From Syntrophaceae bacterium (lineage in GTDB: Bacteria; Desulfobacterota; Syntrophia; Syntrophales; Smithellaceae), in NCBI GenBank assembly GCA_018056765.1, contig JAGPFA010000011.1:6057-70056 (forward strand): a stretch of DNA of 64,000 nucleotides, in the 5' to 3' direction. The notes beneath the pieces are model-generated. The model made no database searches. It was not told where the DNA came from and saw only the letters and a list, made by a program, of their open reading frames with translations. Of the stretch, positions 1-62,198 are shown one piece after another. Position 1 is the first letter of the stretch. Each line of letters starts with the position of its first letter. The position numbers and the translations under genes were made by a program.

Positions 1-60
1 ACCTGATATTCCAAAAAAAACCTCGTTTTGCCTGACTGTCGCGTCTTTTTTTGAAAAGGC

Positions 61-155
61 GACCGGGTTGACCGCAACACACGAAGGGATTTGCTGCCGC
101 TGCTTCCTTCCGGACCTGACGGGGTTCACAAGCCTTCGTTGTACGGGACCCGGCC
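61..155 (-). ncRNA. ffs: Signal recognition particle RNA (small 4.5S type)
   Basis: The reverse complement carries the universal SRP domain IV motif GTCAGGTCCGGAAGGAAGCAGC (plus coordinates 99-120). The 5' GGCCGGGTC and 3' GACCCGGTC ends pair into a closing helix. Ends are approximate. Confidence 0.85.
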
Positions 156-304: not shown

Positions 305-398
305 TGGCGGAGAGTGGGGGATTCGAACCCCCGTAGGAGCTTGTGGCCCCTAAATCGATTTCGAGTCGATCCCGTTACGACCACTTCGGTAACTCTCC
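305..398 (-). tRNA. tRNA-Ser (anticodon CGA), CCA encoded
   Basis: The reverse complement folds as a class II tRNA. It has acceptor GGAGAGT/ACTCTCC, anticodon stem ATCGA/TCGAT with loop CT-CGA-AA, a long variable arm, T arm GGGGG-TTCGAAT-CCCCC and a 3' GCCA. Confidence 0.9.
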
Positions 399-474: not shown

Positions 475-568
475 TGGCGGAGAGAGCGGGATTCGAACCC
501 GCGGTACACCTTTGGGGGCGTACACACGATTTCCAGTCGTGCTCCTTCAGCCTCTCAGACATCTCTCC
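475..568 (-). tRNA. tRNA-Ser (anticodon GGA), CCA encoded
   Basis: The reverse complement reads GGAGAGA...CACGA-CT-GGA-AA-TCGTG, then a long variable arm, a TTCGAAT T-loop and ...CTCTCCGCCA. Confidence 0.9.
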
Positions 569-5514: not shown

Positions 5515-5988
5515 AACCCCTCCTTTTTACAAGATAAATGTTTTACTTTCATTTCTGCGAATCGGGACGACACAGCAGAAATCCGACCAATTGTTTTAAA
5601 GCTCCGTGGACAAGTACAGGGAAGGTAGTTGAGAGAAATTAAAAGAAAAGGAGCAATGGCAAAAAAATCTCCACTGGCTATAAATTCAAAAGCAAATTTT
5701 ATTCCGTTTACCCTGTCATAATCTAATGCATTGTTATCATTGGAATTACCGACAGAACTAAAAGGCGGCTATCTGGAAATATGTAAAAAATCCCGACTCC
5801 ATCCCGATAGCAGCTAAAGACGTTGACGTGTCAACCGATTAAATTATTTAAGAAAAGCGGTTTTTAACCAATCGTAAAGCATCTTTACAATCTCATATAT
5901 TCCCGGATGACCGCTTGAAAATCCCCCACAGTATGTAACCCCTTCTTCATCGGGGTAGTGCTGATCATTACAACATGTTACATCTTTA

Positions 5989-8223: not shown

Positions 8224-8297
8224 TGGGGAATCGTTCAACGGTAGGACAGCGGACTCTGACTCCGTCAATCAAGGTTCGAATCCTTGTTCCCCAGCCA
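8224..8297 (+). tRNA. tRNA-Gln (anticodon CTG), CCA encoded
   Basis: Acceptor TGGGGAA/TTCCCCA, anticodon stem GCGGA/TCCGT with loop CT-CTG-AC, T arm AAGGT-TCGAATC-CTTGT, and a 3' GCCA. Confidence 0.9.
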
Positions 8298-52141: not shown

Positions 52142-53959
52142 ATGAAAAAAGGACACATTAGAAACATCGCCATCATCGCGCACGTTGATCATGGCAAAAC
52201 GACACTGCTCAATGCCCTGATGAAGCAAACGGGCGCTTTCAGCACCAGCCGCGAAGTGGAAGACCGCGTCATGGACTCGATGGACCTGGAAAAGGAGCGC
52301 GGCATCACGATTGCGGCCAAAAATACGGCGATACAATTCAATGGCGTGAAGATTAACATCGTGGACACGCCCGGCCATGCCGATTTCGGAGGCGAGGTGG
52401 AGCGCAGCCTCAACATGGTGGATGGAGCGATCCTGCTGGTGGATGCCAGCGAAGGCCCACTGCCTCAGACCCGCTTTGTGCTTAAAAAAGCACTGGAGAA
52501 GGATCTGCCTCTTATTGTCGTGATAAACAAAATCGACCGTCCTGACGCGCGCATCCCGGAGGTCATTTCCGAAACTTACGATCTTTTCATCGACCTGGGC
52601 GCGCTGGAGCGACAAATCGAGTTTCCCATCATATACACCAACGCCAAAGCGGGTACCGGCGGTAAAAACCCCGGAGACATTGCCGCAAATCTCGAGCCAC
52701 TTTTGCAGGCCGTCATCGATACCATCCCGCCACCGGCGGGCGACGACAGGGCCAATGTACAATTTCTGGTGACCAATCTCGATTACGACTCTTATGTCGG
52801 GCAGATTGCCATCGGGCGGCTCCAGGCAGGGAGACTGGAAATGAACAGCCTCTACACTCTTTGCGCCCTAGACGGCCTGCGGGCAGGCGTCAGGTTCTCC
52901 GCGCTCTACACTTTTTCCGGCCTCACCAAAAAGACGGTTCGCTCGGCCGAAGCGGGCGACATCATCGCGCTGGCCGGTGTGGACGGGGTCAAAATCGGCG
53001 ACACCATCTCATCGGCGGATAACCCCGTGGCGCTCCCCCGTCTGGTGGTCGATGAGCCCACCGTTTCCATGGTCTTTTGTGTCAATGACGGTCCTTTTGC
53101 GGGAAGAGACGGCCGCTACCTGACTTCACGCCACCTGCTGGAGAGACTGGAAAAGGAAGCTCTGGGCAATGTGGCAGTGCGCATCAAAAAACTGGCGCGC
53201 ACCGACGCATTTGAGGTGTGCGGGCGTGGCGAGCTGCAAATGGCCGTGCTCATCGAAACGATGAGGCGGGAGGGATTTGAGCTCGCCGTTTCCAAACCTC
53301 AGGTGATTACAAAAACAATTGACGGGAAAGTTTATGAGCCGGTGGAGCGTCTGTTTGTCGATATCCCCGAAGAGTTTGTCGGTCGCATTACGGAGAAACT
53401 CTCCGGCCGCAGAGGGAGGCTCGAAAGTCTGGTTAATAAAGGAAGCGGCCGTGTGGGCATGGAATTTCTCATTCCATCGCGGGGACTTATCGGCTTTCGC
53501 AGTCAGTTTCTCACCGACACCAAAGGCGGCGGCGTAATGAATTCCCTTCTGGAAGATTACGCGCCCTGGTTCGGAGCCATCCCCCAGCGAAACACCGGTG
53601 TGCTGGTCGCAGACCGCGCCGGCCGAGTCACGGCTTATGCTTGCTATGCGATGGAAGACCGGGGGGAAATGCTGGTGGATGTGGGCACAGAGGTTTATGC
53701 CGGCATGATCGTGGGCGAGCGTAACCGTCCGCAGGATTTAAACGTCAACATCGTCAAGGAAAAGAAGCTTACCAACATGCGGGCATCCACAGCTGACGCC
53801 ACCGTCATTTTACGGCCGCCGCGCATTTTGTCGCTGGACCAAGCAATTGAATTTATCGCCGCAGACGAGCTCGTCGAGGTCACACCGCAAAACGTGCGCC
53901 TGAGAAAAACGGAGCTTGACGCCTCCAAAAGACAGATGAAGGCACGAAAAGACGGCTGA
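52142..53959 (+). CDS. typA: Translational GTPase TypA/BipA
   Basis: IRNIAIIAHVDHGKTTL, DTPGHADFGGEVER and VINKIDR, in a 605-aa EF-G-like architecture with the BipA C-terminal domain. Confidence 0.95.
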   Translation: MKKGHIRNIAIIAHVDHGKTTLLNALMKQTGAFSTSREVEDRVMDSMDLEKERGITIAAKNTAIQFNGVKINIVDTPGHADFGGEVERSLNMVDGAILLVDASEGPLPQTRFVLKKALEKDLPLIVVINKIDRPDARIPEVISETYDLFIDLGALERQIEFPIIYTNAKAGTGGKNPGDIAANLEPLLQAVIDTIPPPAGDDRANVQFLVTNLDYDSYVGQIAIGRLQAGRLEMNSLYTLCALDGLRAGVRFSALYTFSGLTKKTVRSAEAGDIIALAGVDGVKIGDTISSADNPVALPRLVVDEPTVSMVFCVNDGPFAGRDGRYLTSRHLLERLEKEALGNVAVRIKKLARTDAFEVCGRGELQMAVLIETMRREGFELAVSKPQVITKTIDGKVYEPVERLFVDIPEEFVGRITEKLSGRRGRLESLVNKGSGRVGMEFLIPSRGLIGFRSQFLTDTKGGGVMNSLLEDYAPWFGAIPQRNTGVLVADRAGRVTAYACYAMEDRGEMLVDVGTEVYAGMIVGERNRPQDLNVNIVKEKKLTNMRASTADATVILRPPRILSLDQAIEFIAADELVEVTPQNVRLRKTELDASKRQMKARKDG

Positions 53960-54097
53960 ACGCCAAACATCGGAAGCACGGACCTCCTTCAAATATCTTT
54001 TTCGCGCCGCGCTGTGCACAGTCCTTTCTTCTCCTGCTTCAGCATGCTTCAGCAAATAACCCCTCCCGGGGCGATGAAAATCAGACCGCGGTGATTC

Positions 54098-55627
54098 TTA
54101 AGGGGTGATCTTCGTCAGAAACGCATCCACAATACCGGCGGAGTTTTTGTAGTTGCTCTTGCCGAAATCAGAGCCGAAATTGACATTACCTGCGAAAGCA
54201 CCGGTCATGTAAAGGGTGCCCGTCTGATTCAGTGTAATTCCCAGTCCCTGGTCATCATCCCCCCCTCCGATACGCCTCGTCCAGCCGTAAGTACCATCCT
54301 GGTTGATCTTTGTGATAAAAATATCTGTCGAGCCAGCCGAAATTTTTGAATCGCTTCCCCCGAAGCCGGCGGCGAAATTGACCGTCTGTTCAAAACTGCC
54401 GCCCAAATAGATATTCCCCGCTCCGTCCACGGCAATAGCATCAGCGCGGTCAATGCCGGCACCGCCCATCCCTCTGGTCCAGCCGTAATCACCGTCGCCG
54501 GTGACCTTGGTGAGGAAAATATCGTCATGGCCGTTTGAGCTGATCTCATCGGCTCCGCTTGGAAAATCAGCCGCGAAATCGGGGCTGCCTTGAAAGCTGC
54601 CTGTGATGTAGATATTGCCCGTGGCATCGGCACCAAGTCCGTAGGCAGCATCGTCACCGGCTCCGCCGATAGTTTTTGTCCAGCCGTAGGTGCCGTTGGC
54701 ATTTATTCGTGTAATGAAAGCATCCGCACCGCCTAAAGAGGTTTTATTATCTGTCGCGCCAAAATCCGCCCTAAAGTTTACAGCGTTTCTGAAATAACCG
54801 GTGATATAAACATTGTCCGAGGAATCAACGGCAATCCCGTAGGCAACATCGTTACCGTTGCCGCCGATAGTTTTTGTCCAGCCGTAGGTGCCGTCGGCAT
54901 TGATTTTTGTAACGAAGATATCCGCACCGCCACCGGAACTTTTGTTCTCGGTGCCTGTAAAATCGGCGGCAAAATTGACCGTATCTTCAAAACCTCCGGC
55001 AATATAAACATTACCCGAAGCGTCAACGGTGATTCCGTAAGCAACATCGTTGGCGGTGCCGCCGATAATTTTTGTCCAGCCGTAGTTACCGTTGGCAGTG
55101 ATTTTTGTAATGAAGATATCCGTACCACCGGCCGAGGTTTTGGGATCGGCGGCGTTAAAATCTTCCCGAAAGTTCACAGCGTTTCTGAAGCGACCGGCAA
55201 TGTAAATATTGCCGGAAGCATCGACGGCAATCCCGTAGGCAGCATCATTACCGGGGCCTCCGATACGCCTCGTCCAGCTGTGGTTACGGCTGGCATTGAT
55301 TTTTGTAATGAAGATATCCGCACCGCCATCCGAGGTTTTGGTCTCGGTGCCGCCGAAATCAGCGGCAAAGTTGACCATCTGCTCAAACTGGCCACCGATA
55401 TAGATGTTTCCCTCTGTGTCCACGGCAATACCGCGGGCAGCGGTAATGCCTGTACCACCGCCGAAGTGATTTGACCAATTGTATTCGGGCAAGCCGCCGA
55501 CCGGCAGCACACTGCCGCCACCGCCTTCGCCTCCCCCCCCGCCACCACCCCCGCAGCCGGCAAATGCAAACAAAAAAGCGCAATACACGGCAACCGCCGC
55601 TAAAACAGCGAGCCATTTTCTATCCAT
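54098..55627 (-). CDS. SBBP (beta-propeller) repeat lipoprotein
   Basis: Lipobox FAGC followed by a poly-Gly linker. It is followed by about 8 tandem ~55-aa repeats of the form GGxDxFITKIxxxGxYGWTKxIGGxxxDxAYGIAVDxSGNxYIxGxFxxxVNF. Confidence 0.8.
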   Translation of the reverse strand: MDRKWLAVLAAVAVYCAFLFAFAGCGGGGGGGGEGGGGSVLPVGGLPEYNWSNHFGGGTGITAARGIAVDTEGNIYIGGQFEQMVNFAADFGGTETKTSDGGADIFITKINASRNHSWTRRIGGPGNDAAYGIAVDASGNIYIAGRFRNAVNFREDFNAADPKTSAGGTDIFITKITANGNYGWTKIIGGTANDVAYGITVDASGNVYIAGGFEDTVNFAADFTGTENKSSGGGADIFVTKINADGTYGWTKTIGGNGNDVAYGIAVDSSDNVYITGYFRNAVNFRADFGATDNKTSLGGADAFITRINANGTYGWTKTIGGAGDDAAYGLGADATGNIYITGSFQGSPDFAADFPSGADEISSNGHDDIFLTKVTGDGDYGWTRGMGGAGIDRADAIAVDGAGNIYLGGSFEQTVNFAAGFGGSDSKISAGSTDIFITKINQDGTYGWTRRIGGGDDDQGLGITLNQTGTLYMTGAFAGNVNFGSDFGKSNYKNSAGIVDAFLTKITP

Positions 55628-55670
55628 AGATTAAGCTCCTTCAAAAGATAAGGTGTGTTCGTATGCAGAA

Positions 55671-55699
55671 ATAATACATAGGTAATCAGGGCGTGTCAA
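55671..55699 (-). promoter_or_regulatory. Candidate sigma-70 promoter for the SBBP lipoprotein gene
   Basis: The minus strand reads TTGACA (55699-55694), a 17-nt spacer, then TATTAT (55676-55671), about 45 nt upstream of the ATG at 55627. Confidence 0.5.
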
Positions 55700-55939
55700 T
55701 AAATAAAATGCCACCCCAAAAAAAATCTGCGACGAACGCTCAAAACGTGGGGAAGCAAGACAAGCAGGACGGGAAGGATGAGCCGCATGAGGAACGGGGA
55801 GGTGATCCGTTTACAGGGGGGAAGGAAGGCAGAAAAAAGGCTGATGCACAGTGTGTCACGGCAGGGCGGGCAAAAAGGCCGCATTTTCAGGCGTCGTTTA
55901 GTCCTCCCGGAGATGACTCCGCTTCTGGCCTTTAAATAC

Positions 55940-55978
55940 GTCCGGTTGCGGGCCAGGCTTACAGACCCGCAACCGGAC
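55940..55978 (-). terminator. Strong hairpin downstream of the CBS-domain gene (possible terminator)
   Basis: Perfect 13-bp stem GTCCGGTTGCGGG/CCCGCAACCGGAC with a 13-nt loop. Only a short T-containing tail (GTATTTAAA) follows on the minus strand. Confidence 0.45.
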
Positions 55979-56011
55979 AGGACCATTGACTAAACAGCCC
56001 CTTGTCAAATG

Positions 56012-56449
56012 CTAGTAGTATTTACCGGCAATATAGTCACTGAGCTGATTGATGAGAAAATCTTTTTGTGAAATGACCAGCTTCACGACGTCGCCGATGG
56101 AGATAATACCAATAAATTTATTCTTTTCGAAAACAGGCAAATGGCGCACATGCTTGCCTGTCATCAGTACCATCGCGTCCTCCACTCTCGTGTCCGGCGT
56201 GACGGAAAACAGGTTGGTGGACATGACCTCCTGCACCAGCGTGTTTTTCGAGCTTTTCCCCTGAAGAATAATTTTTCTGGCGTAGTCTCTCTCTGAAAGT
56301 ATACCGACAACTTTTTTATTCTCCATGACAACCAGGGCGCCGATTTCCTTTTCGCTCATCTTTTCGAGCGCTTCATATACGGTCGCCTTCGGGGAAATGG
56401 ACTGGATCTTACCGTCTTTCGCACTGAGAATATCCCTGACGTGACTCAT
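56012..56449 (-). CDS. CBS domain pair protein
   Basis: 145 aa consisting of two CBS motifs (GALVVMENKKVVGILSERD; HLPVFEKNKFIGIISIGD). Confidence 0.8.
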   Translation of the reverse strand: MSHVRDILSAKDGKIQSISPKATVYEALEKMSEKEIGALVVMENKKVVGILSERDYARKIILQGKSSKNTLVQEVMSTNLFSVTPDTRVEDAMVLMTGKHVRHLPVFEKNKFIGIISIGDVVKLVISQKDFLINQLSDYIAGKYY

Positions 56450-56701
56450 AGAATGCCTCCTCTTTTTTTATTGTCGATCCTGGTTTTATTCTAAAGCATC
56501 TGAGTGTAAAAATAAAGATGTAATTACAAAATTTGTTCGTGCCGCCCTGAAACGGGGCAATCGTAAAAACAGTCGGTTCATGCTCCGTTCCCATGTGGAG
56601 GAGAATACAGGACAAAGTATTTCCTCAAAGGAGATTTCTTCCTTGACAAGATTTTACCGGCTGTGTTACGAAAAGCGCAATATTGGATGAATTGATAAAA
56701 A

Positions 56702-56761
56702 ATGCTAAAAACAATTCCTGATAAAAAATGGTGGTGGTGGACGAAAAACGTCTGCCCTTAA
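56702..56761 (+). CDS. Trp leader peptide (MLKTIPDKKWWWWTKNVCP)
   Basis: This 19-codon ORF contains four consecutive TGG codons (56729-56740). It lies about 60 nt upstream of an intrinsic terminator and about 155 nt upstream of trpB2. A weak SD (GGATGA) lies 11 nt upstream. Confidence 0.7.
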   Translation: MLKTIPDKKWWWWTKNVCP

Positions 56762-56821
56762 GCTCCAGAAAATCGAGCATGGGCGGGGGAAGCTCTTCCC
56801 ATGACTCGCAAACATGATGTA

Positions 56822-56857
56822 ATGCCGTGGGAAGAAAAGCTCCATGGCATTTTTTTT
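56822..56857 (+). terminator. Attenuator terminator in the trpB2 leader
   Basis: Stem ATGCCGTGG (56822-56830) pairs with CCATGGCAT (56842-56850) and is followed by T8. The 5' arm can alternatively pair with CTTCCCATG at 56795-56803. Confidence 0.75.
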
Positions 56858-56917
56858 AGCCCACCGCCGCTGTAAAGCGCGGCAAACCGGCGCATATTAC
56901 TTTTAAGGAGAGAAAAT

Positions 56918-58279
56918 ATGGAACAGATCAAAACATTTCTGGAGGAGAGAGAAATACCGCGTCAGTGGTACAATGTGATGGCAGACCTGCCCACTCCCAT
57001 GAAACCACCGCTGCATCCGGGTACAGGCCAGCCGATCAAACCCGAAGACATGGCGGCGATTTTCCCGATGAATATCATCGAGCAGGAAGCAACCACCCAA
57101 AGATGGATCGACATTCCCGAAGAAGTGCTCCAGAAATATCTCCTGTGGCGCCCCTCTCCCCTGTATCGTGCGCGCAACTTCGAAAAGCTGCTGGGCTGCC
57201 CGGTGAAGATTTATTACAAAAATGAAGGTGTAAGCCCGGCCGGCTCTCACAAACCAAACGCGGCCATTCCGATGGCGTATTTTAACAAAGTAGCCGGAAC
57301 CAAACGCATCACCACGGAAACCGGCGCCGGTCAGTGGGGTTCGGCCCTGGCGATGGCCTGTCAGATGTTCGGCCTTCCCTGCCGTGTTTATATGGTGCGC
57401 ATCAGCTATGACCAGAAACCCTACCGCCGGATGATGATGAATGCCTGGGGGGCCGAATGTCTGGCAAGTCCGACTAATCTGACTCAGGCGGGCCGCAGTG
57501 TATTGGCTGAGCACCCTGATTCTCCCGGTTCTCTGGGCATTGCCATCAGCGAGGCGATCGAAGATGCGGTGACCACGCCCAACACAAAATACGCTCTGGG
57601 AAGTGTGTTGAACCACGTCCTTTTGTACCAGTCGATTATCGGCCTCGAGGCTCAGAAGCAGATGGCAAAATTGGGAGAATATCCGGATGTCGTCATGGGC
57701 TGCTGCGGTGGAGGAAGTAACTTCGCGGGGCTTGCGCTGCCCTATGTTTCCGATTTGTTCACAGGTAAGAACGTCAAGATCGTAGGGGCGGAGCCGACTT
57801 CCTGCCCGACAATGACCAAAGGACCGTTTGCCTACGATTTCGGCGATCTGGCCAAATCCACACCGCTTCTGCCCATGTACACGCTGGGGCATGACTATAT
57901 CCCTGCTCCGATTCACGCGGGCGGACTGCGCTATCACGGCATGGCGCCCATCATCAGCCATCTGGTGCGTGAGAATTTTATCGAGCCCAGGGCCTACGAT
58001 CAGCTCAAAACCTTCGACGCGGGTATCAAATGGGCGCGCTCCGAAGGATTCATTCCCGCACCGGAAACAAACCACGTGATCGCGGCCGTGGTGGATGAGG
58101 CGATGCGCGCCAAAGAAGAAGGGAAAGAGAAAGTCATCCTCTTCAACTGGAGCGGCCATGGCCTGGTGGATCTGTCGGCATACGACGCCTATCTGTCCGG
58201 AAAGCTTCAGGCCTATGAACTGCCGGATGAGGAGATTGAAAAGGCGCTCTTGGCCATTAAGGATTTCCCCAAACCATAA
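56918..58279 (+). CDS. trpB: Tryptophan synthase beta chain, TrpB2 (long, stand-alone) type
   Basis: 453 aa. KNEGVSPAGSHKPN (PLP-lysine), GAGQWGSALA, GCCGGGSNFAGL, and the N-terminal extension typical of TrpB2. Strong SD AAGGAGAG. No trpA or other trp genes are adjacent. Confidence 0.9.
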   Translation: MEQIKTFLEEREIPRQWYNVMADLPTPMKPPLHPGTGQPIKPEDMAAIFPMNIIEQEATTQRWIDIPEEVLQKYLLWRPSPLYRARNFEKLLGCPVKIYYKNEGVSPAGSHKPNAAIPMAYFNKVAGTKRITTETGAGQWGSALAMACQMFGLPCRVYMVRISYDQKPYRRMMMNAWGAECLASPTNLTQAGRSVLAEHPDSPGSLGIAISEAIEDAVTTPNTKYALGSVLNHVLLYQSIIGLEAQKQMAKLGEYPDVVMGCCGGGSNFAGLALPYVSDLFTGKNVKIVGAEPTSCPTMTKGPFAYDFGDLAKSTPLLPMYTLGHDYIPAPIHAGGLRYHGMAPIISHLVRENFIEPRAYDQLKTFDAGIKWARSEGFIPAPETNHVIAAVVDEAMRAKEEGKEKVILFNWSGHGLVDLSAYDAYLSGKLQAYELPDEEIEKALLAIKDFPKP

Positions 58280-58327
58280 CGTCAGATTTTCTTAATAAAA
58301 CGGCGATGAATAAAACCGCCGCTGCAA

Positions 58328-58370
58328 AAGCCGTCAGAGCAATAAATCTCTTGACGGCTTTTCTTTTTTT
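58328..58370 (+). terminator. Rho-independent terminator after trpB2
   Basis: Stem AAGCCGTCAGAG / CTCT(T)GACGGCTT with one bulge, followed by TTCTTTTTTT. Confidence 0.7.
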
Positions 58371-58387
58371 CGCCAAGCTGACACACG

Positions 58388-58645
58388 ATGGAAACACAGC
58401 ACGACTCAAAAATAACGCGTTGCCCGAAGCTGGGCGATGAAATCACTTTCTCATATTGCCTGCGTGAAGCCGGCGATCTGCCCTGCCCGCGTATTATCCG
58501 CTGCTGGCAGGCCGCGTTCGACGTAGTCAGTGTCCTCAGGGGGCGCCTCTCCGACAAACAATGGGAACTTTTTACAAGCGCCGTCCCTGAGAGCAAAATA
58601 AGCAATCTGGTCGATCTCATTGAGCAGGCCAAGAGACGGACATGA
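58388..58645 (+). CDS. Small 4-Cys hypothetical protein, stop overlapping the rarA start
   Basis: 85 aa containing RCPKLGDEITFSYC...LPCPRIIRCW (4 Cys). The TGA overlaps the ATG of rarA (ATGA at 58642-58645). No clear SD sequence. Confidence 0.45.
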   Translation: METQHDSKITRCPKLGDEITFSYCLREAGDLPCPRIIRCWQAAFDVVSVLRGRLSDKQWELFTSAVPESKISNLVDLIEQAKRRT

Positions 58646-59991
58646 AAAATCTAGATCTGTTCTCACAGGGAACACAAAACGACATCCTCGCAACCGCACC
58701 TCTGGCTGAGCGTATGAGACCGCAAACGCTCGATGAATATATCGGCCAGGAACATCTCACCGGCGCGGGCACACTGCTTCGCCACGCCATTTTGGAAGAC
58801 AGGCTTTTTTCCATGATTTTCTGGGGGCCGCCCGGTTCCGGGAAAACCACGCTGGCGCGCATCCTGGCCGGTGAAACGAAAGCCAATTTCGTCTCTTTTT
58901 CGGCCGTACTCTCCGGTGTCAAAGAAATCAGGCAGGTCATCGACGACGCCAAAGAGGTTTGGGAGGGCAAAAAGAAAAAAACTATTCTGTTCGTCGATGA
59001 AATCCATCGTTTCAACAAAGCTCAACAGGACGCTTTTTTACCGCACGTCGAAAGCGGCCTGATCACACTTGTCGGCGCAACAACCGAAAATCCTTCCTTC
59101 GAGGTCATCGCGCCTCTTCTTTCCCGTACGCGCGTCCTGACGCTCAAGCCATTTACCAATGACCATCTGCTGGCGATCCTCAGGCGCGCACTTGACGATA
59201 CTTCAAAGGGGCTGGGAACATTATCCATCCGTGCCGATGATGATGCGCTCGAATTCATCGCCGGTATTTCCGACGGAGATGCGCGCACCGCTTTGGGTAA
59301 CCTGGAGGCGGCCGCATCGCTGGTCAGCAGCCTGGCCGCCGGCGAGAGAATCATTACCGCCCAGGCAGCAAGAGAAGCGTTGGCAAAAAAGACTCTTTTA
59401 TACGACAAGGAAGGCGAAGAACATTACAATCTGATCTCCGCTTTTCATAAAAGCATGCGCGGCTCCGATCCGGATGCCACACTGTACTGGCTGGGACGCA
59501 TGCTCGCCGCCGGCGAGGACCCGATGTATATCCTGAGGCGCATGGTACGTTTCGCTTCCGAAGATGTGGGTAACGCCGACCCACAGGCTCTCGTCGTCAC
59601 CATGGCGGCCCAACAGGCCTTTCATTTCATCGGCCTGCCGGAGGGCGAGCTGCCCATCGCCCAGGCGGCTGTTTATCTGGCCACAGCGCCCAAAAGCAAT
59701 TCTTTGTACGCGGGCTACGGCCGCACCAAAGATTTAATCGCCAAAACCGGCTCGTTGCCTGTGCCGCTCCACATCCGCAACGCGCCGACAAAACTGATGA
59801 AGGAGCTGGACTACGGCAAGGGCTACCAGTATGCCCATGATTATCCGGATGCATTTGTCGCCCAGGAGTATCTGCCGGAAAAACTGCAAGGAACGGTTCT
59901 TTATTCCCCGAAAGACTCAGGCTTTGAAAAAACTATCGGGGAGAGAATCGCCGCGTGGCGTACACAAAAAGCCGCCCAGGTAAAGAAATAA
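58642..59991 (+). CDS. rarA: Replication-associated recombination protein A (AAA+ ATPase)
   Basis: Walker A GPPGSGKTT, Walker B LFVDEIHRFNK, GATTENPSF, and the MgsA C-terminal domain (HYNLISAFHKSMRGSDPDA...YWL.RML). Confidence 0.9.
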   Translation: MKNLDLFSQGTQNDILATAPLAERMRPQTLDEYIGQEHLTGAGTLLRHAILEDRLFSMIFWGPPGSGKTTLARILAGETKANFVSFSAVLSGVKEIRQVIDDAKEVWEGKKKKTILFVDEIHRFNKAQQDAFLPHVESGLITLVGATTENPSFEVIAPLLSRTRVLTLKPFTNDHLLAILRRALDDTSKGLGTLSIRADDDALEFIAGISDGDARTALGNLEAAASLVSSLAAGERIITAQAAREALAKKTLLYDKEGEEHYNLISAFHKSMRGSDPDATLYWLGRMLAAGEDPMYILRRMVRFASEDVGNADPQALVVTMAAQQAFHFIGLPEGELPIAQAAVYLATAPKSNSLYAGYGRTKDLIAKTGSLPVPLHIRNAPTKLMKELDYGKGYQYAHDYPDAFVAQEYLPEKLQGTVLYSPKDSGFEKTIGERIAAWRTQKAAQVKK

Positions 59992-60422
59992 AAAACGGGA
60001 GGCCGGTTTGACGACCTCCCAGGGAGAGAAGATGAAGGGTTGGAAACCTTCTGGGTTATTTTTGCTGTCGGCTAATCATGCCCGTAATTTTTTAGTCGAC
60101 GCTAACTTTTCCATTCTGCTTCTTTTTAAGCATAGAGCATGCCATAATTTTTACAAGAGATCCAGACTATTGATTTAACTAAATATTTCACCAAATCCCC
60201 GCTTGAGAGCCAAACGGGCAAAATTAGCCCAGCCGGCAATAAGTGTCGGAACAATTTCCTTCCCGTACAAAAAAGCCAAATAAATACAATTATATATAAA
60301 AACGACAAGAAACGCCCTCGCTCGACAAAAATGTCGAAAGCTCTGCTATTTACCGTTGACATTTATCTTCAATAGTTTAAGATGCCCACAACTTTAGTAA
60401 GGTCATCTTTATTTGGATTTTT

Positions 60423-62198
60423 ATGAGATTTTTACGAAAAAGCGAAACTATTTGGCGTACTACACGCGCCTATGACGGCAGTTTTCTTCAGCCGATTGCC
60501 GTCGGCCTTGTTTCGGCGATTTTGGTCACGCTGATTCTCATCATGGGCTTTCTCGACATGAGGCGCGGCGAGACCAATCTCATCGGCCTGATGGAAGACC
60601 AGGCCCTCTCCACGGTCGCTGTTTTGCAGCGCCTGACAGAAGAAAATCACAAAAGGATTACTGCACGGGCCCCAAAGTCACCCCTGAAAGAAAAATCTGC
60701 CCGTGAGGAAGAAGATGATTTTATTAAAAAATATTTTTCCGAAGCCATCACTGCATTGACCTGGAAATTATATTACGAACACAAAAAGCAAAATATCATT
60801 GACAATGAGTATCTAAAAAAATTCGCCGCAGACAACCATCTTTGGTACGTGGGCATACTTGACCGCCAAGGCAACGCAATCTTCCAAAGCAGGGACCTGC
60901 TAGCGGATGAAGCCGAACTGCTCCCTGGCGGGATAAACCTAACTACCTTGACTGCATTGGGAATGCTCCAGGAAATCCGGAAGATCGGTTTTCTCGCCCT
61001 CAAACGTCATGATGAAGATGACATCATTGTGCTCACGCTCGACAAACATAGTGCTGCGTATTGGGGATTGAAGGTTGCCGTCGAACGGGCAATCGATAAA
61101 ATGGGGGAAGGCAATGGGGTTATCTATCTGCAGATTTTCGACAATAAGGGTCAACTTCTGAGCATGACCGGCTCCATGCCGGAAGAGCTCCTGGGGAAAG
61201 ATATTGGACAAGGTGGCATTCTGTCGGGCAAGGAAAAGATAAAAACCAGAAAATTGGACACTAATAGCGCAAAAATACTAGATATAATGACTCCTTTTTT
61301 CATTCATGAAAAAATTGAGGGGTATGTGCGCATCGGCCTTGATCGAAGCTCGATGGATACCATCATGGTTGAGAACCGCCAGAATATCGTGATTTTCATG
61401 CTGCTCGTAGTCGTCATCGCTCTTGTTTCCATGTGGCTTTTATACCGTGACCAGAACCGCCATCTGTCCGGTATAATCGACATGGAGCGACGCCTGGAAA
61501 AAGCGGAGCGCCTCTCCTCACTGGGTATGCTTGCGGCCGGCGTCGCGCATGAAATCCGTAACCCGTTAAACGCTATCAGTATGGCCGCCCAAAGACTCAA
61601 AAGAGATTTCGTTCCGGCCGATGAAATGAAATCCGCTGAATTCCAGAATCTTTCCGGCGTTGTCCGCGACGAAATCCGGCGGCTAAACGCAATTATTGAA
61701 GAGTTTCTCTCATTTTCAAAAAGCAGACGATTGGAGTTGAGCGACTTTTCCGTCACGGAAATTTTACAAAAAATCGTCCAACTGGTAAGGGAAGAGGCTG
61801 TTTCACGAAATATCATACTGGAAACCAAGTGGCCCTCCACACCGATGATCATCCCTATGGATATCAACAAGCTGCAGCAGGCCTTCCTGAATTTTATAAA
61901 AAACAGCATGGAATCCATATCCGGAAAGGGCAGAATCACCATCAAGGTGGAAAAGCAAGGGAAAGATAACATTGTGGTGAGTATCTCCGACACCGGTTGC
62001 GGCATGAGCGAAGAGGAAATGGAAAAAATCTTCAACCCGGAATATACGACAAAGGAAAAAGGTCTGGGACTGGGAATGCCTCTGGCCATGGAAATTATCC
62101 GCGGCCACGGGGGTGATGTGCGCGTCATCAGCAGGCGCGGTCTGGGTACTACTTTTGAAATTCTCCTGCCGGTGAAGAGAAGCGGCGGACAAAATTAA
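60423..62198 (+). CDS. Sensor histidine kinase (membrane-anchored, NtrB/AtoS-like)
   Basis: Two TM segments flank a ~270-aa periplasmic region. H-box AHEIRNPLNAI, N-box FLNFIKNSMES, and G-boxes DTGCGM and GLGLGM. Confidence 0.85.
   Translation: MRFLRKSETIWRTTRAYDGSFLQPIAVGLVSAILVTLILIMGFLDMRRGETNLIGLMEDQALSTVAVLQRLTEENHKRITARAPKSPLKEKSAREEEDDFIKKYFSEAITALTWKLYYEHKKQNIIDNEYLKKFAADNHLWYVGILDRQGNAIFQSRDLLADEAELLPGGINLTTLTALGMLQEIRKIGFLALKRHDEDDIIVLTLDKHSAAYWGLKVAVERAIDKMGEGNGVIYLQIFDNKGQLLSMTGSMPEELLGKDIGQGGILSGKEKIKTRKLDTNSAKILDIMTPFFIHEKIEGYVRIGLDRSSMDTIMVENRQNIVIFMLLVVVIALVSMWLLYRDQNRHLSGIIDMERRLEKAERLSSLGMLAAGVAHEIRNPLNAISMAAQRLKRDFVPADEMKSAEFQNLSGVVRDEIRRLNAIIEEFLSFSKSRRLELSDFSVTEILQKIVQLVREEAVSRNIILETKWPSTPMIIPMDINKLQQAFLNFIKNSMESISGKGRITIKVEKQGKDNIVVSISDTGCGMSEEEMEKIFNPEYTTKEKGLGLGMPLAMEIIRGHGGDVRVISRRGLGTTFEILLPVKRSGGQN

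Follow-up and report, generated by a model that had tools for sequence, protein, structure and literature searches.

Which signal controls the stand-alone trpB2 gene of this Syntrophaceae bacterium, and by what arrangement of its leader RNA? The window, which is the whole 64 kb stretch of DNA that was analysed, contained a short open reading frame with four consecutive Trp codons upstream of trpB2. A preliminary description of the locus had proposed a leader ORF with this Trp run, an intrinsic terminator, an antiterminator and a hairpin sequestering the latter, and all of these were found in place by direct reading of the sequence and by folding. The features of a leader-peptide attenuator were found together, namely tandem UGG codons within a small ORF, an intrinsic terminator, an exclusive antiterminator, position-dependent folding in silico, and a target gene of Trp metabolism. 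The element was therefore read, with a probability of about 85%, as a ribosome-mediated (leader-peptide) transcription attenuator that would sense charged tRNA-Trp and control a monocistronic trpB2. This reading draws on observed sequence elements and their conservation, the covariation of both conformations, the switching in silico, and the identity of the downstream gene. The coordinates of the features are collected in Table 1.

Table 1. Features of the leader and of the trpB2 transcript in the window, and positions of the same leader family before other genes (contigs named in the coordinate column).
Feature	Coordinates	Strand	Remarks
Probable promoter	56643..56672	+	-35 TTGACA (56643-48), extended -10-like TGtTACGAA (56664-72)
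Leader peptide ORF	56702..56761	+	ATG 56702 to TAA 56759-61; 19 codons + stop, MLKTIPDKKWWWWTKNVCP*; read directly; predicted translation
Four regulatory Trp codons (UGG x4)	56729..56740	+	unique in window
Segment 1, GGUGGACG	56736..56743	+	5' arm of hairpin P1; overlaps Trp codons 3 and 4
Segment 2, CGUCUGCCC	56749..56757	+	Val-Cys-Pro codons; P1 3' arm, or alternative partner of segment 3
Helper helix GCUC (56762-65) : GAGC (56775-78)	56762..56778	+	extends 2:3 when segment 1 is masked; constrained folds
Segment 3, CGAGCAUGGGCGGGG	56774..56788	+	P2 5' arm; GGGCGG(G) 56781-87 is the alternative partner of segment 2
Segment 4, CUCUUCCCAUGACUCG	56793..56808	+	P2 3' arm; CUUCCCAUG 56795-803 is the alternative partner of segment 5
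Segment 5, AUGCCGUGGGAAG	56822..56834	+	terminator 5' arm or antiterminator 3' arm
Segment 6, UCCAUGGCAU + U8 tract (56850-57)	56841..56857	+	3' arm and tail of intrinsic terminator
Shine-Dalgarno of trpB2, AAGGAGAG	56905..56912	+	read directly; AAGGAG in relatives
trpB2, TrpB-like PLP-dependent enzyme, 453 aa	56918..58279	+	NCBIfam PRK12391, TIGR01415, Pfam PALP
Intrinsic terminator of trpB2 transcript	~58326..58370	+	hairpin AAAAGCCGUCAGAG...CUCUUGACGGCUUUU, then U-rich tail
Leader family 5' of trpE / trpEGDCF(BA) or LivH/LivM-type ABC permease genes	L125 52-181; L145 745-929 (-); L131 5009-5144 (-); L137 7-130; L204 4783-4912; L205 5850-5981; L206 1221-1352		

The twelve-base UGG run, TGGTGGTGGTGG, had a single occurrence in the 64 kb window and was absent from all of 100 dinucleotide-preserving shuffles, and the Trp-codon run, UGGUGGUGG, was invariant across alignment A1 of homologous leaders. 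In 67 of 75 homologous leaders an ATG-started ORF spanned the run in the TGG frame; for the other two frames the numbers were 3 and 13. The Shine-Dalgarno-like GGAUGA of the leader ORF in the window was weak and distant (12-17 nt upstream), and several relatives had better ones. The leader ORF is skipped by gene callers, and the gene calls in three contigs (L200-L202) contained none for it. Of the 18 closest leaders aligned, 17 had the TTGACA and TG-N-TA elements upstream in the same register, and transcription probably starts at ~56679-81, as predicted from this conserved promoter, which was not reported by the consensus promoter scanner.

The leader RNA is a chain of six segments with two alternative sets of pairings. 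The terminating set was composed of P1 (1:2), P2 (3:4) and the terminator (5:6), and the read-through set of the pairings 2:3 and 4:5. The terminator formed a 10-bp stem between AUGCCGUGG(G) (56822-31) and (U)CCAUGGCAU (56841-50), followed by T8 (56850-57), with an evaluated energy of -13.9 kcal/mol. This terminator at 56822-57 was missed by the consensus terminator scanner because its loop exceeds the scanner's 8-nt limit. In the antiterminator (4:5), CTTCCCATG was complementary to CGTGGGAAG over 9 bp with -12.6 kcal/mol, that is, CUUCCCAUG (56795-803) to CGUGGGAAG (56826-34). P2 contained the pairing of CAUGGG (56778-83) with CCCAUG (56798-803) within a hairpin of -20.0 kcal/mol (56774-56808). 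The CAUGGG/CCCAUG core was common to P2 and the terminator, and the two hairpins resemble a duplication. Overall, the leader of the window folded better than all 200 of 200 shuffles (z = -3.3).

The preliminary description had regarded the geometry as unusual, with the Trp codons about 35 nt from the first pairing segment. This point was resolved by two pairings that had been missed, P1 and 2:3. In P1, GGUGGACG (56736-43) paired with CGUCUGCC (56749-56) at -10.8 kcal/mol, and in the aligned leaders of A1 the last Trp codon plus CAGAC paired with GUCUGCC. In 2:3, residues 56751-57 paired with 56781-87, with CUGCCC of the P1 3' arm being complementary to the GGGC(A/G)G that opens the middle hairpin (56781-86). 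The helper helix next to 2:3 was partly conserved, with 55-76% of cells paired per pair. With its A site on Trp codon 2, 3 or 4, a ribosome would cover the RNA to ~56744-56750, so that segment 1 is wholly covered and segment 2 is free, and a ribosome at the stop codon would cover it to ~56771, with segment 2 covered and segment 3 outside. The arrangement is therefore the classical one, and the concern over the 35-nt gap falls. In the full-length fold the UGG run was also paired with CCCACCGCC (56861-69, downstream of the terminator); this pairing was unconserved in relatives and was rejected.

The effect of ribosome position was modelled by folding transcripts of growing length with a ribosome mask, in which protection was assumed to 15 nt past the first P-site base. 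When any of the four Trp codons of the window leader was in the A site, 2:3 with the GCUC:GAGC helper formed, and then the 4:5 antiterminator. When the mask was placed at the stop codon or no ribosome was present, P2 formed, and then the terminator. Among the 76 distinct leaders, the Trp-codon mask gave the antiterminator in 66, and the stop-codon mask gave P2 in 67 and the antiterminator in 8. Ten of the 76 did not switch under this simple masking test. The minimum-free-energy fold of the full-length leader contained the terminator in 75 of the 76. When the full transcript of the window was folded with a stalled ribosome, the minimum-free-energy fold retained P2 and the terminator (-37.3 kcal/mol). 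Since the terminator form was more stable even with the ribosome stalled, the decision must be kinetic, as in E. coli.

The alignment of upstream regions of orthologous trpB2 genes, proposed in the preliminary description, showed that the ORF with the Trp run, the terminator and the antiterminator were conserved. The classical trpL logic suggested there was borne out by 76 distinct homologous leaders in which both conformations covaried. These belonged to the set of alignment A4 (81 leaders, 76 distinct), which was fitted to the terminated structure. In that structure, 92.2% of cells were paired, against 39-52% in slid controls, and 14 pairs had changes on both sides, which was reached by none of 500 shuffles; these and the following pairing counts were uncorrected for relatedness, and many aligned leaders were close relatives, so that the cell counts overstate the number of independent compensatory events. 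P1 was paired in 90.8% of cells across the 76 leaders, with both-side changes in five of its eight pairs, for example GGCAGAC/GUCUGCC, GGCAGGUU/AGCCUGCC and GGCGGGC/GGCCUGCC, and the terminator helix in 96.9%. The alternative structure was paired in 82.9% of cells, compared with 37-48% when slid, and both-side changes were found in 12 pairs; its 4:5 helix was paired in 83%, compared with 37-48% with the partner slid. The clearest pair of the alternative structure was the 2:3 pair 43:80 of A4, where 32 leaders had UA and 30 had CG. In P2 the partner of column 80 is an unchanging U, so selection to keep the 2:3 helix is the best explanation for the change in column 43. In several distant leaders (L024, L026, L030, L031, L032, L035, L046 and L125), a U-run was also present after P2, giving two tandem terminators.

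From these elements, a sequence of events can be predicted. Transcription would begin near 56680, and a ribosome would translate the 19-codon leader. When Trp is scarce, the ribosome would stall on the UGG codons (56729-40) and cover segment 1 (56736-43), which would release segment 2 (56749-57) to pair with segment 3 (56781-87). Segment 4 (56795-803) would then be free for segment 5 (56826-34) and form the antiterminator, no terminator would form, and RNA polymerase would continue into trpB2. When Trp is plentiful, the ribosome would reach the stop codon (56759-61) and cover segment 2, and when the leader is not translated, P1 (1:2) would occupy segment 2. In both cases segment 3 would pair with segment 4 as P2, the 5:6 terminator with its U8 tail would form, and transcription would end at ~56857. 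In this scheme the stalling itself, the efficiency of termination, the start of transcription and the physiological response are predictions from the sequence.

The gene at 56918-58279 was of the TrpB2 type, stand-alone and monocistronic in the window, as the preliminary description had it. Its product scored 721 bits with PRK12391 (cut-off 366) and 628 with TIGR01415 (cut-off 519), whereas the canonical trpB model TIGR00263 gave 149, below its cut-off of 392. Its own terminator lay downstream, and its neighbours were a divergent CBS-domain gene upstream and rarA downstream. A tblastn search of the 64 kb window for trpE and trpB found no trpE and no second trpB, and none of the six flanking ORFs scanned (52142-62198) was a trp gene. 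In the fetched loci of relatives, no trpE or second trpB was found within ~4 kb of trpB2.

Other features of the window were also recorded. Between trpB2 and rarA, an 85-codon Cys-rich ORF (58388-58645, +) overlapped the rarA start by 4 nt; it had no Pfam match and was called as a gene in other assemblies. A protein of 509 aa with SBBP beta-propeller repeats, similar to the LipL53 lipoprotein family, was encoded at 54098-55627 (-), upstream of the CBS-domain gene. Near the start of the window, a small SRP RNA and three tRNA genes were found at the Rfam gathering threshold (58-155 (-), 308-398 (-), 478-568 (-) and 8224-8294 (+)). The exact TrpB2 protein was present in 93 blocks of public assemblies, which indicates a widespread, uncultured organism.

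The distribution of the element was examined by a protein-guided scan with one genome per species, which gave 79 trpB2 loci at 66-88% identity, nearly all from MAGs labelled Smithella, Syntrophus, Syntrophales or other Thermodesulfobacteriota. The closer relatives had small WWW or WWWW ORFs 120-300 nt upstream of trpB2. A covariance model, R1, was built from alignment A1 with the terminating structure. It detected the element in 30 of these 79 loci, in each case immediately 5' of trpB2, and gave a single hit in the window (104 bits). Neither the rest of the window nor the locus flanks contained a further copy by the R1 search. The 49 loci without the element were mostly more distant, and most of them had no room for it because their upstream gaps were short.

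A metagenome scan was carried out with a DNA pattern taken from the leader only, which was blind to the downstream gene but derived from trpB2 leaders. It gave 80 loci, of which 55 matched R1. Downstream of these 55 were trpB2 in 51, trpE (anthranilate synthase component I) in two, and LivH/LivM-type permeases, which may belong to an importer of Trp or aromatic amino acids, in two. In relatives of the metagenome TrpE, R1-type leaders were found 5' of trpEGDCF(BA) operons (L204-L206), with trpB and trpA visible in L205. In a Syntrophus sp. MAG (L203, ~5763-5945), the trpEGDCFBA operon had a diverged leader with WWW, MNNNAVILVSMSKNWWWGS*, at its 5' side; hairpins and U-tracts came after the ORF, and the R1 score was weak (27 bits). 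As the family also stands before trpE operons, the element is a general Trp attenuator of the lineage and is not specific to trpB2; the stand-alone trpB2 is one target, the commonest in a sample whose pattern came from trpB2 leaders. The earlier designation of trpB2 as the regulated gene thus held in the window, but the family as a whole also precedes trpE operons and ABC transporter genes elsewhere.

Since the close relatives share a WWWQxxxVCP tail before the stop codon, and a Pro-stop ending recalls TnaC, the peptide itself was considered as the sensor. In such a system, high free Trp would make the conserved W...VCP-stop peptide arrest its ribosome on the stop codon, and trpB2 would be induced by excess Trp. 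This is extremely improbable, because the tail is conserved as RNA, with the P1 3' arm covarying with the 5' arm, and not as a peptide. The stop codon was located from 5 to 16 codons past the start of the Trp run, and segment 2 was conserved throughout. In L023, L024, L026, L030 and L043 the stop codon lay upstream of segment 2, either within the loop of P1 or where its 3' arm begins. Little or none of the arm is then translated, and the arm nucleotides were still conserved, which is evidence against a constraint of the TnaC kind. The ...WWW(Q/R)xxxVCP-stop ending was common to the nearest clade, and the tails were wholly diverged further out (for example RLAGPPG, EVNSDLST and QT). Moreover, the terminator is intrinsic and not Rho-dependent, and the downstream gene is biosynthetic. 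The arrest peptide was therefore rejected, on the RNA-level conservation of the tail and the shifts of the stop codon.

A leader that binds a ligand, a tRNA or a protein (riboswitch, T-box or TRAP-like), with the small ORF incidental, would also be expected to be highly structured and conserved, as this one is. Against it, no Rfam family reached threshold, all hits being at chance level and the best being nrdJ RNA with 19.9 bits against a cut-off of 40.3, and neither a T-box nor Trp_leader (RF00513) was matched in 56400-57000 at the gathering threshold or at E <= 10. TRAP sites consist of nine to eleven (G/U)AG repeats spaced 2-3 nt apart, and the longest chain so spaced in 56680-56917 had one member. 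The invariant element was instead the UGG run, in frame with an ATG in 67 of the 75 leaders, and the two alternative conformations accounted for all conserved helices, which makes a binding leader very improbable. An additional function in trans, by which the terminated RNA of ~175 nt or the peptide would act on other targets like rnTrpL and peTrpL of Sinorhizobium, is compatible with the attenuator. It has a precedent in S. meliloti (PMC6614838, PMC7298713), and when Trp is sufficient the terminated leader RNA should be abundant. It was nevertheless considered unlikely, as the N-termini of the peptides were unconserved and cis pairing explains all conserved RNA segments.

When the attenuator was compared with trpL of E. 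coli and Salmonella (RF00513), both had consecutive UGG codons in a small ORF, an intrinsic terminator and an antiterminator that excludes it, regulatory codons within the first pairing segment, and a stop codon placed so that the terminating ribosome blocks the structure leading to antitermination. However, the present leader had no Rfam match in sequence or structure. It has six segments where trpL has four, its Trp codons number three or four instead of two, its target is a lone trpB2 and not trpEDCBA, and it belongs to the Syntrophales (Thermodesulfobacteriota). The six-segment layout would correspond to the A:B / C:D / E:F nomenclature of the his leader. Like the his leader of Salmonella and E. 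coli, it had a hairpin over the regulatory codons, then an additional hairpin in the middle and last the terminator, with read-through by two staggered alternative pairings. The his leader, however, senses His through seven His codons and is unrelated in sequence. For the his leader, PMC1183508 argues that the extra hairpin suppresses basal read-through once the ribosome has been released, and P2, placed between P1 and the terminator in the same design, may likewise lower basal read-through.

Outside the enterobacteria, independent examples of Trp-codon leader peptides with a terminator and an antiterminator are found in Corynebacterium, Streptomyces and Sinorhizobium, and PMC1262725 and PMC6614838 document leader-peptide Trp attenuators in gamma- and alpha-proteobacteria and Actinobacteria. 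The leaders of Actinobacteria and alpha-proteobacteria have other conserved motifs (gGCC-rGCy-GGCC in Actinobacteria), and their targets are trpE-led operons. The C. diphtheriae 'trpB2A' of PMC1262725 is a trpB gene adjoining trpA, and it is not shown in that paper to be a stand-alone TrpB2-type paralog. TnaC of the tryptophanase operon likewise has a small Trp-related leader ORF, and the close relatives here end in Pro-stop, whereas TnaC senses free Trp via the nascent peptide, uses Rho-dependent termination and induces a catabolic gene, none of which fits here. The preliminary description was not aware that such control is well documented in genomes of this kind. No account of a Trp attenuator that controls a TrpB2-type gene, or of one within the Syntrophales, was found in the literature covered, whose incomplete coverage makes this an absence of evidence only. 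The mechanism is textbook, and the RNA family and target gene appear to be undescribed.

The RNA family, which is absent from Rfam, is well populated (over 80 examples) and has a covariance model that works. It uses the six-segment design of the his type for Trp, which may suit organisms without a Trp repressor. TrpB2 is described as an indole-scavenging paralog outside the trp operon (PMC2700814, PMC1854888), and its role in indole salvage is also treated in Hiyama 2014, as cited in PMC11085991. The stand-alone form is widespread, and its role, as indole salvage or an additional function, is debated (PMC1854888, PMC2700814; Hiyama 2014 via PMC11085991). The predicted Trp-codon attenuator before trpB2 is direct regulatory evidence that TrpB2 is wanted when charged tRNA-Trp is low, and together with the presence of the same family on trpE operons it places TrpB2 firmly in tryptophan supply. 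It is tentatively proposed that Syntrophales and their relatives possess a lineage-wide Trp-starvation regulon of the trp operon, a LivHM-type ABC importer and the stand-alone trpB2, in which indole scavenging by TrpB2 might be a major, specifically induced route to Trp. If this is true, TrpB2 would convert community-derived indole to Trp in syntrophic anaerobes, and the stand-alone TrpB2 would have a defined physiological role.
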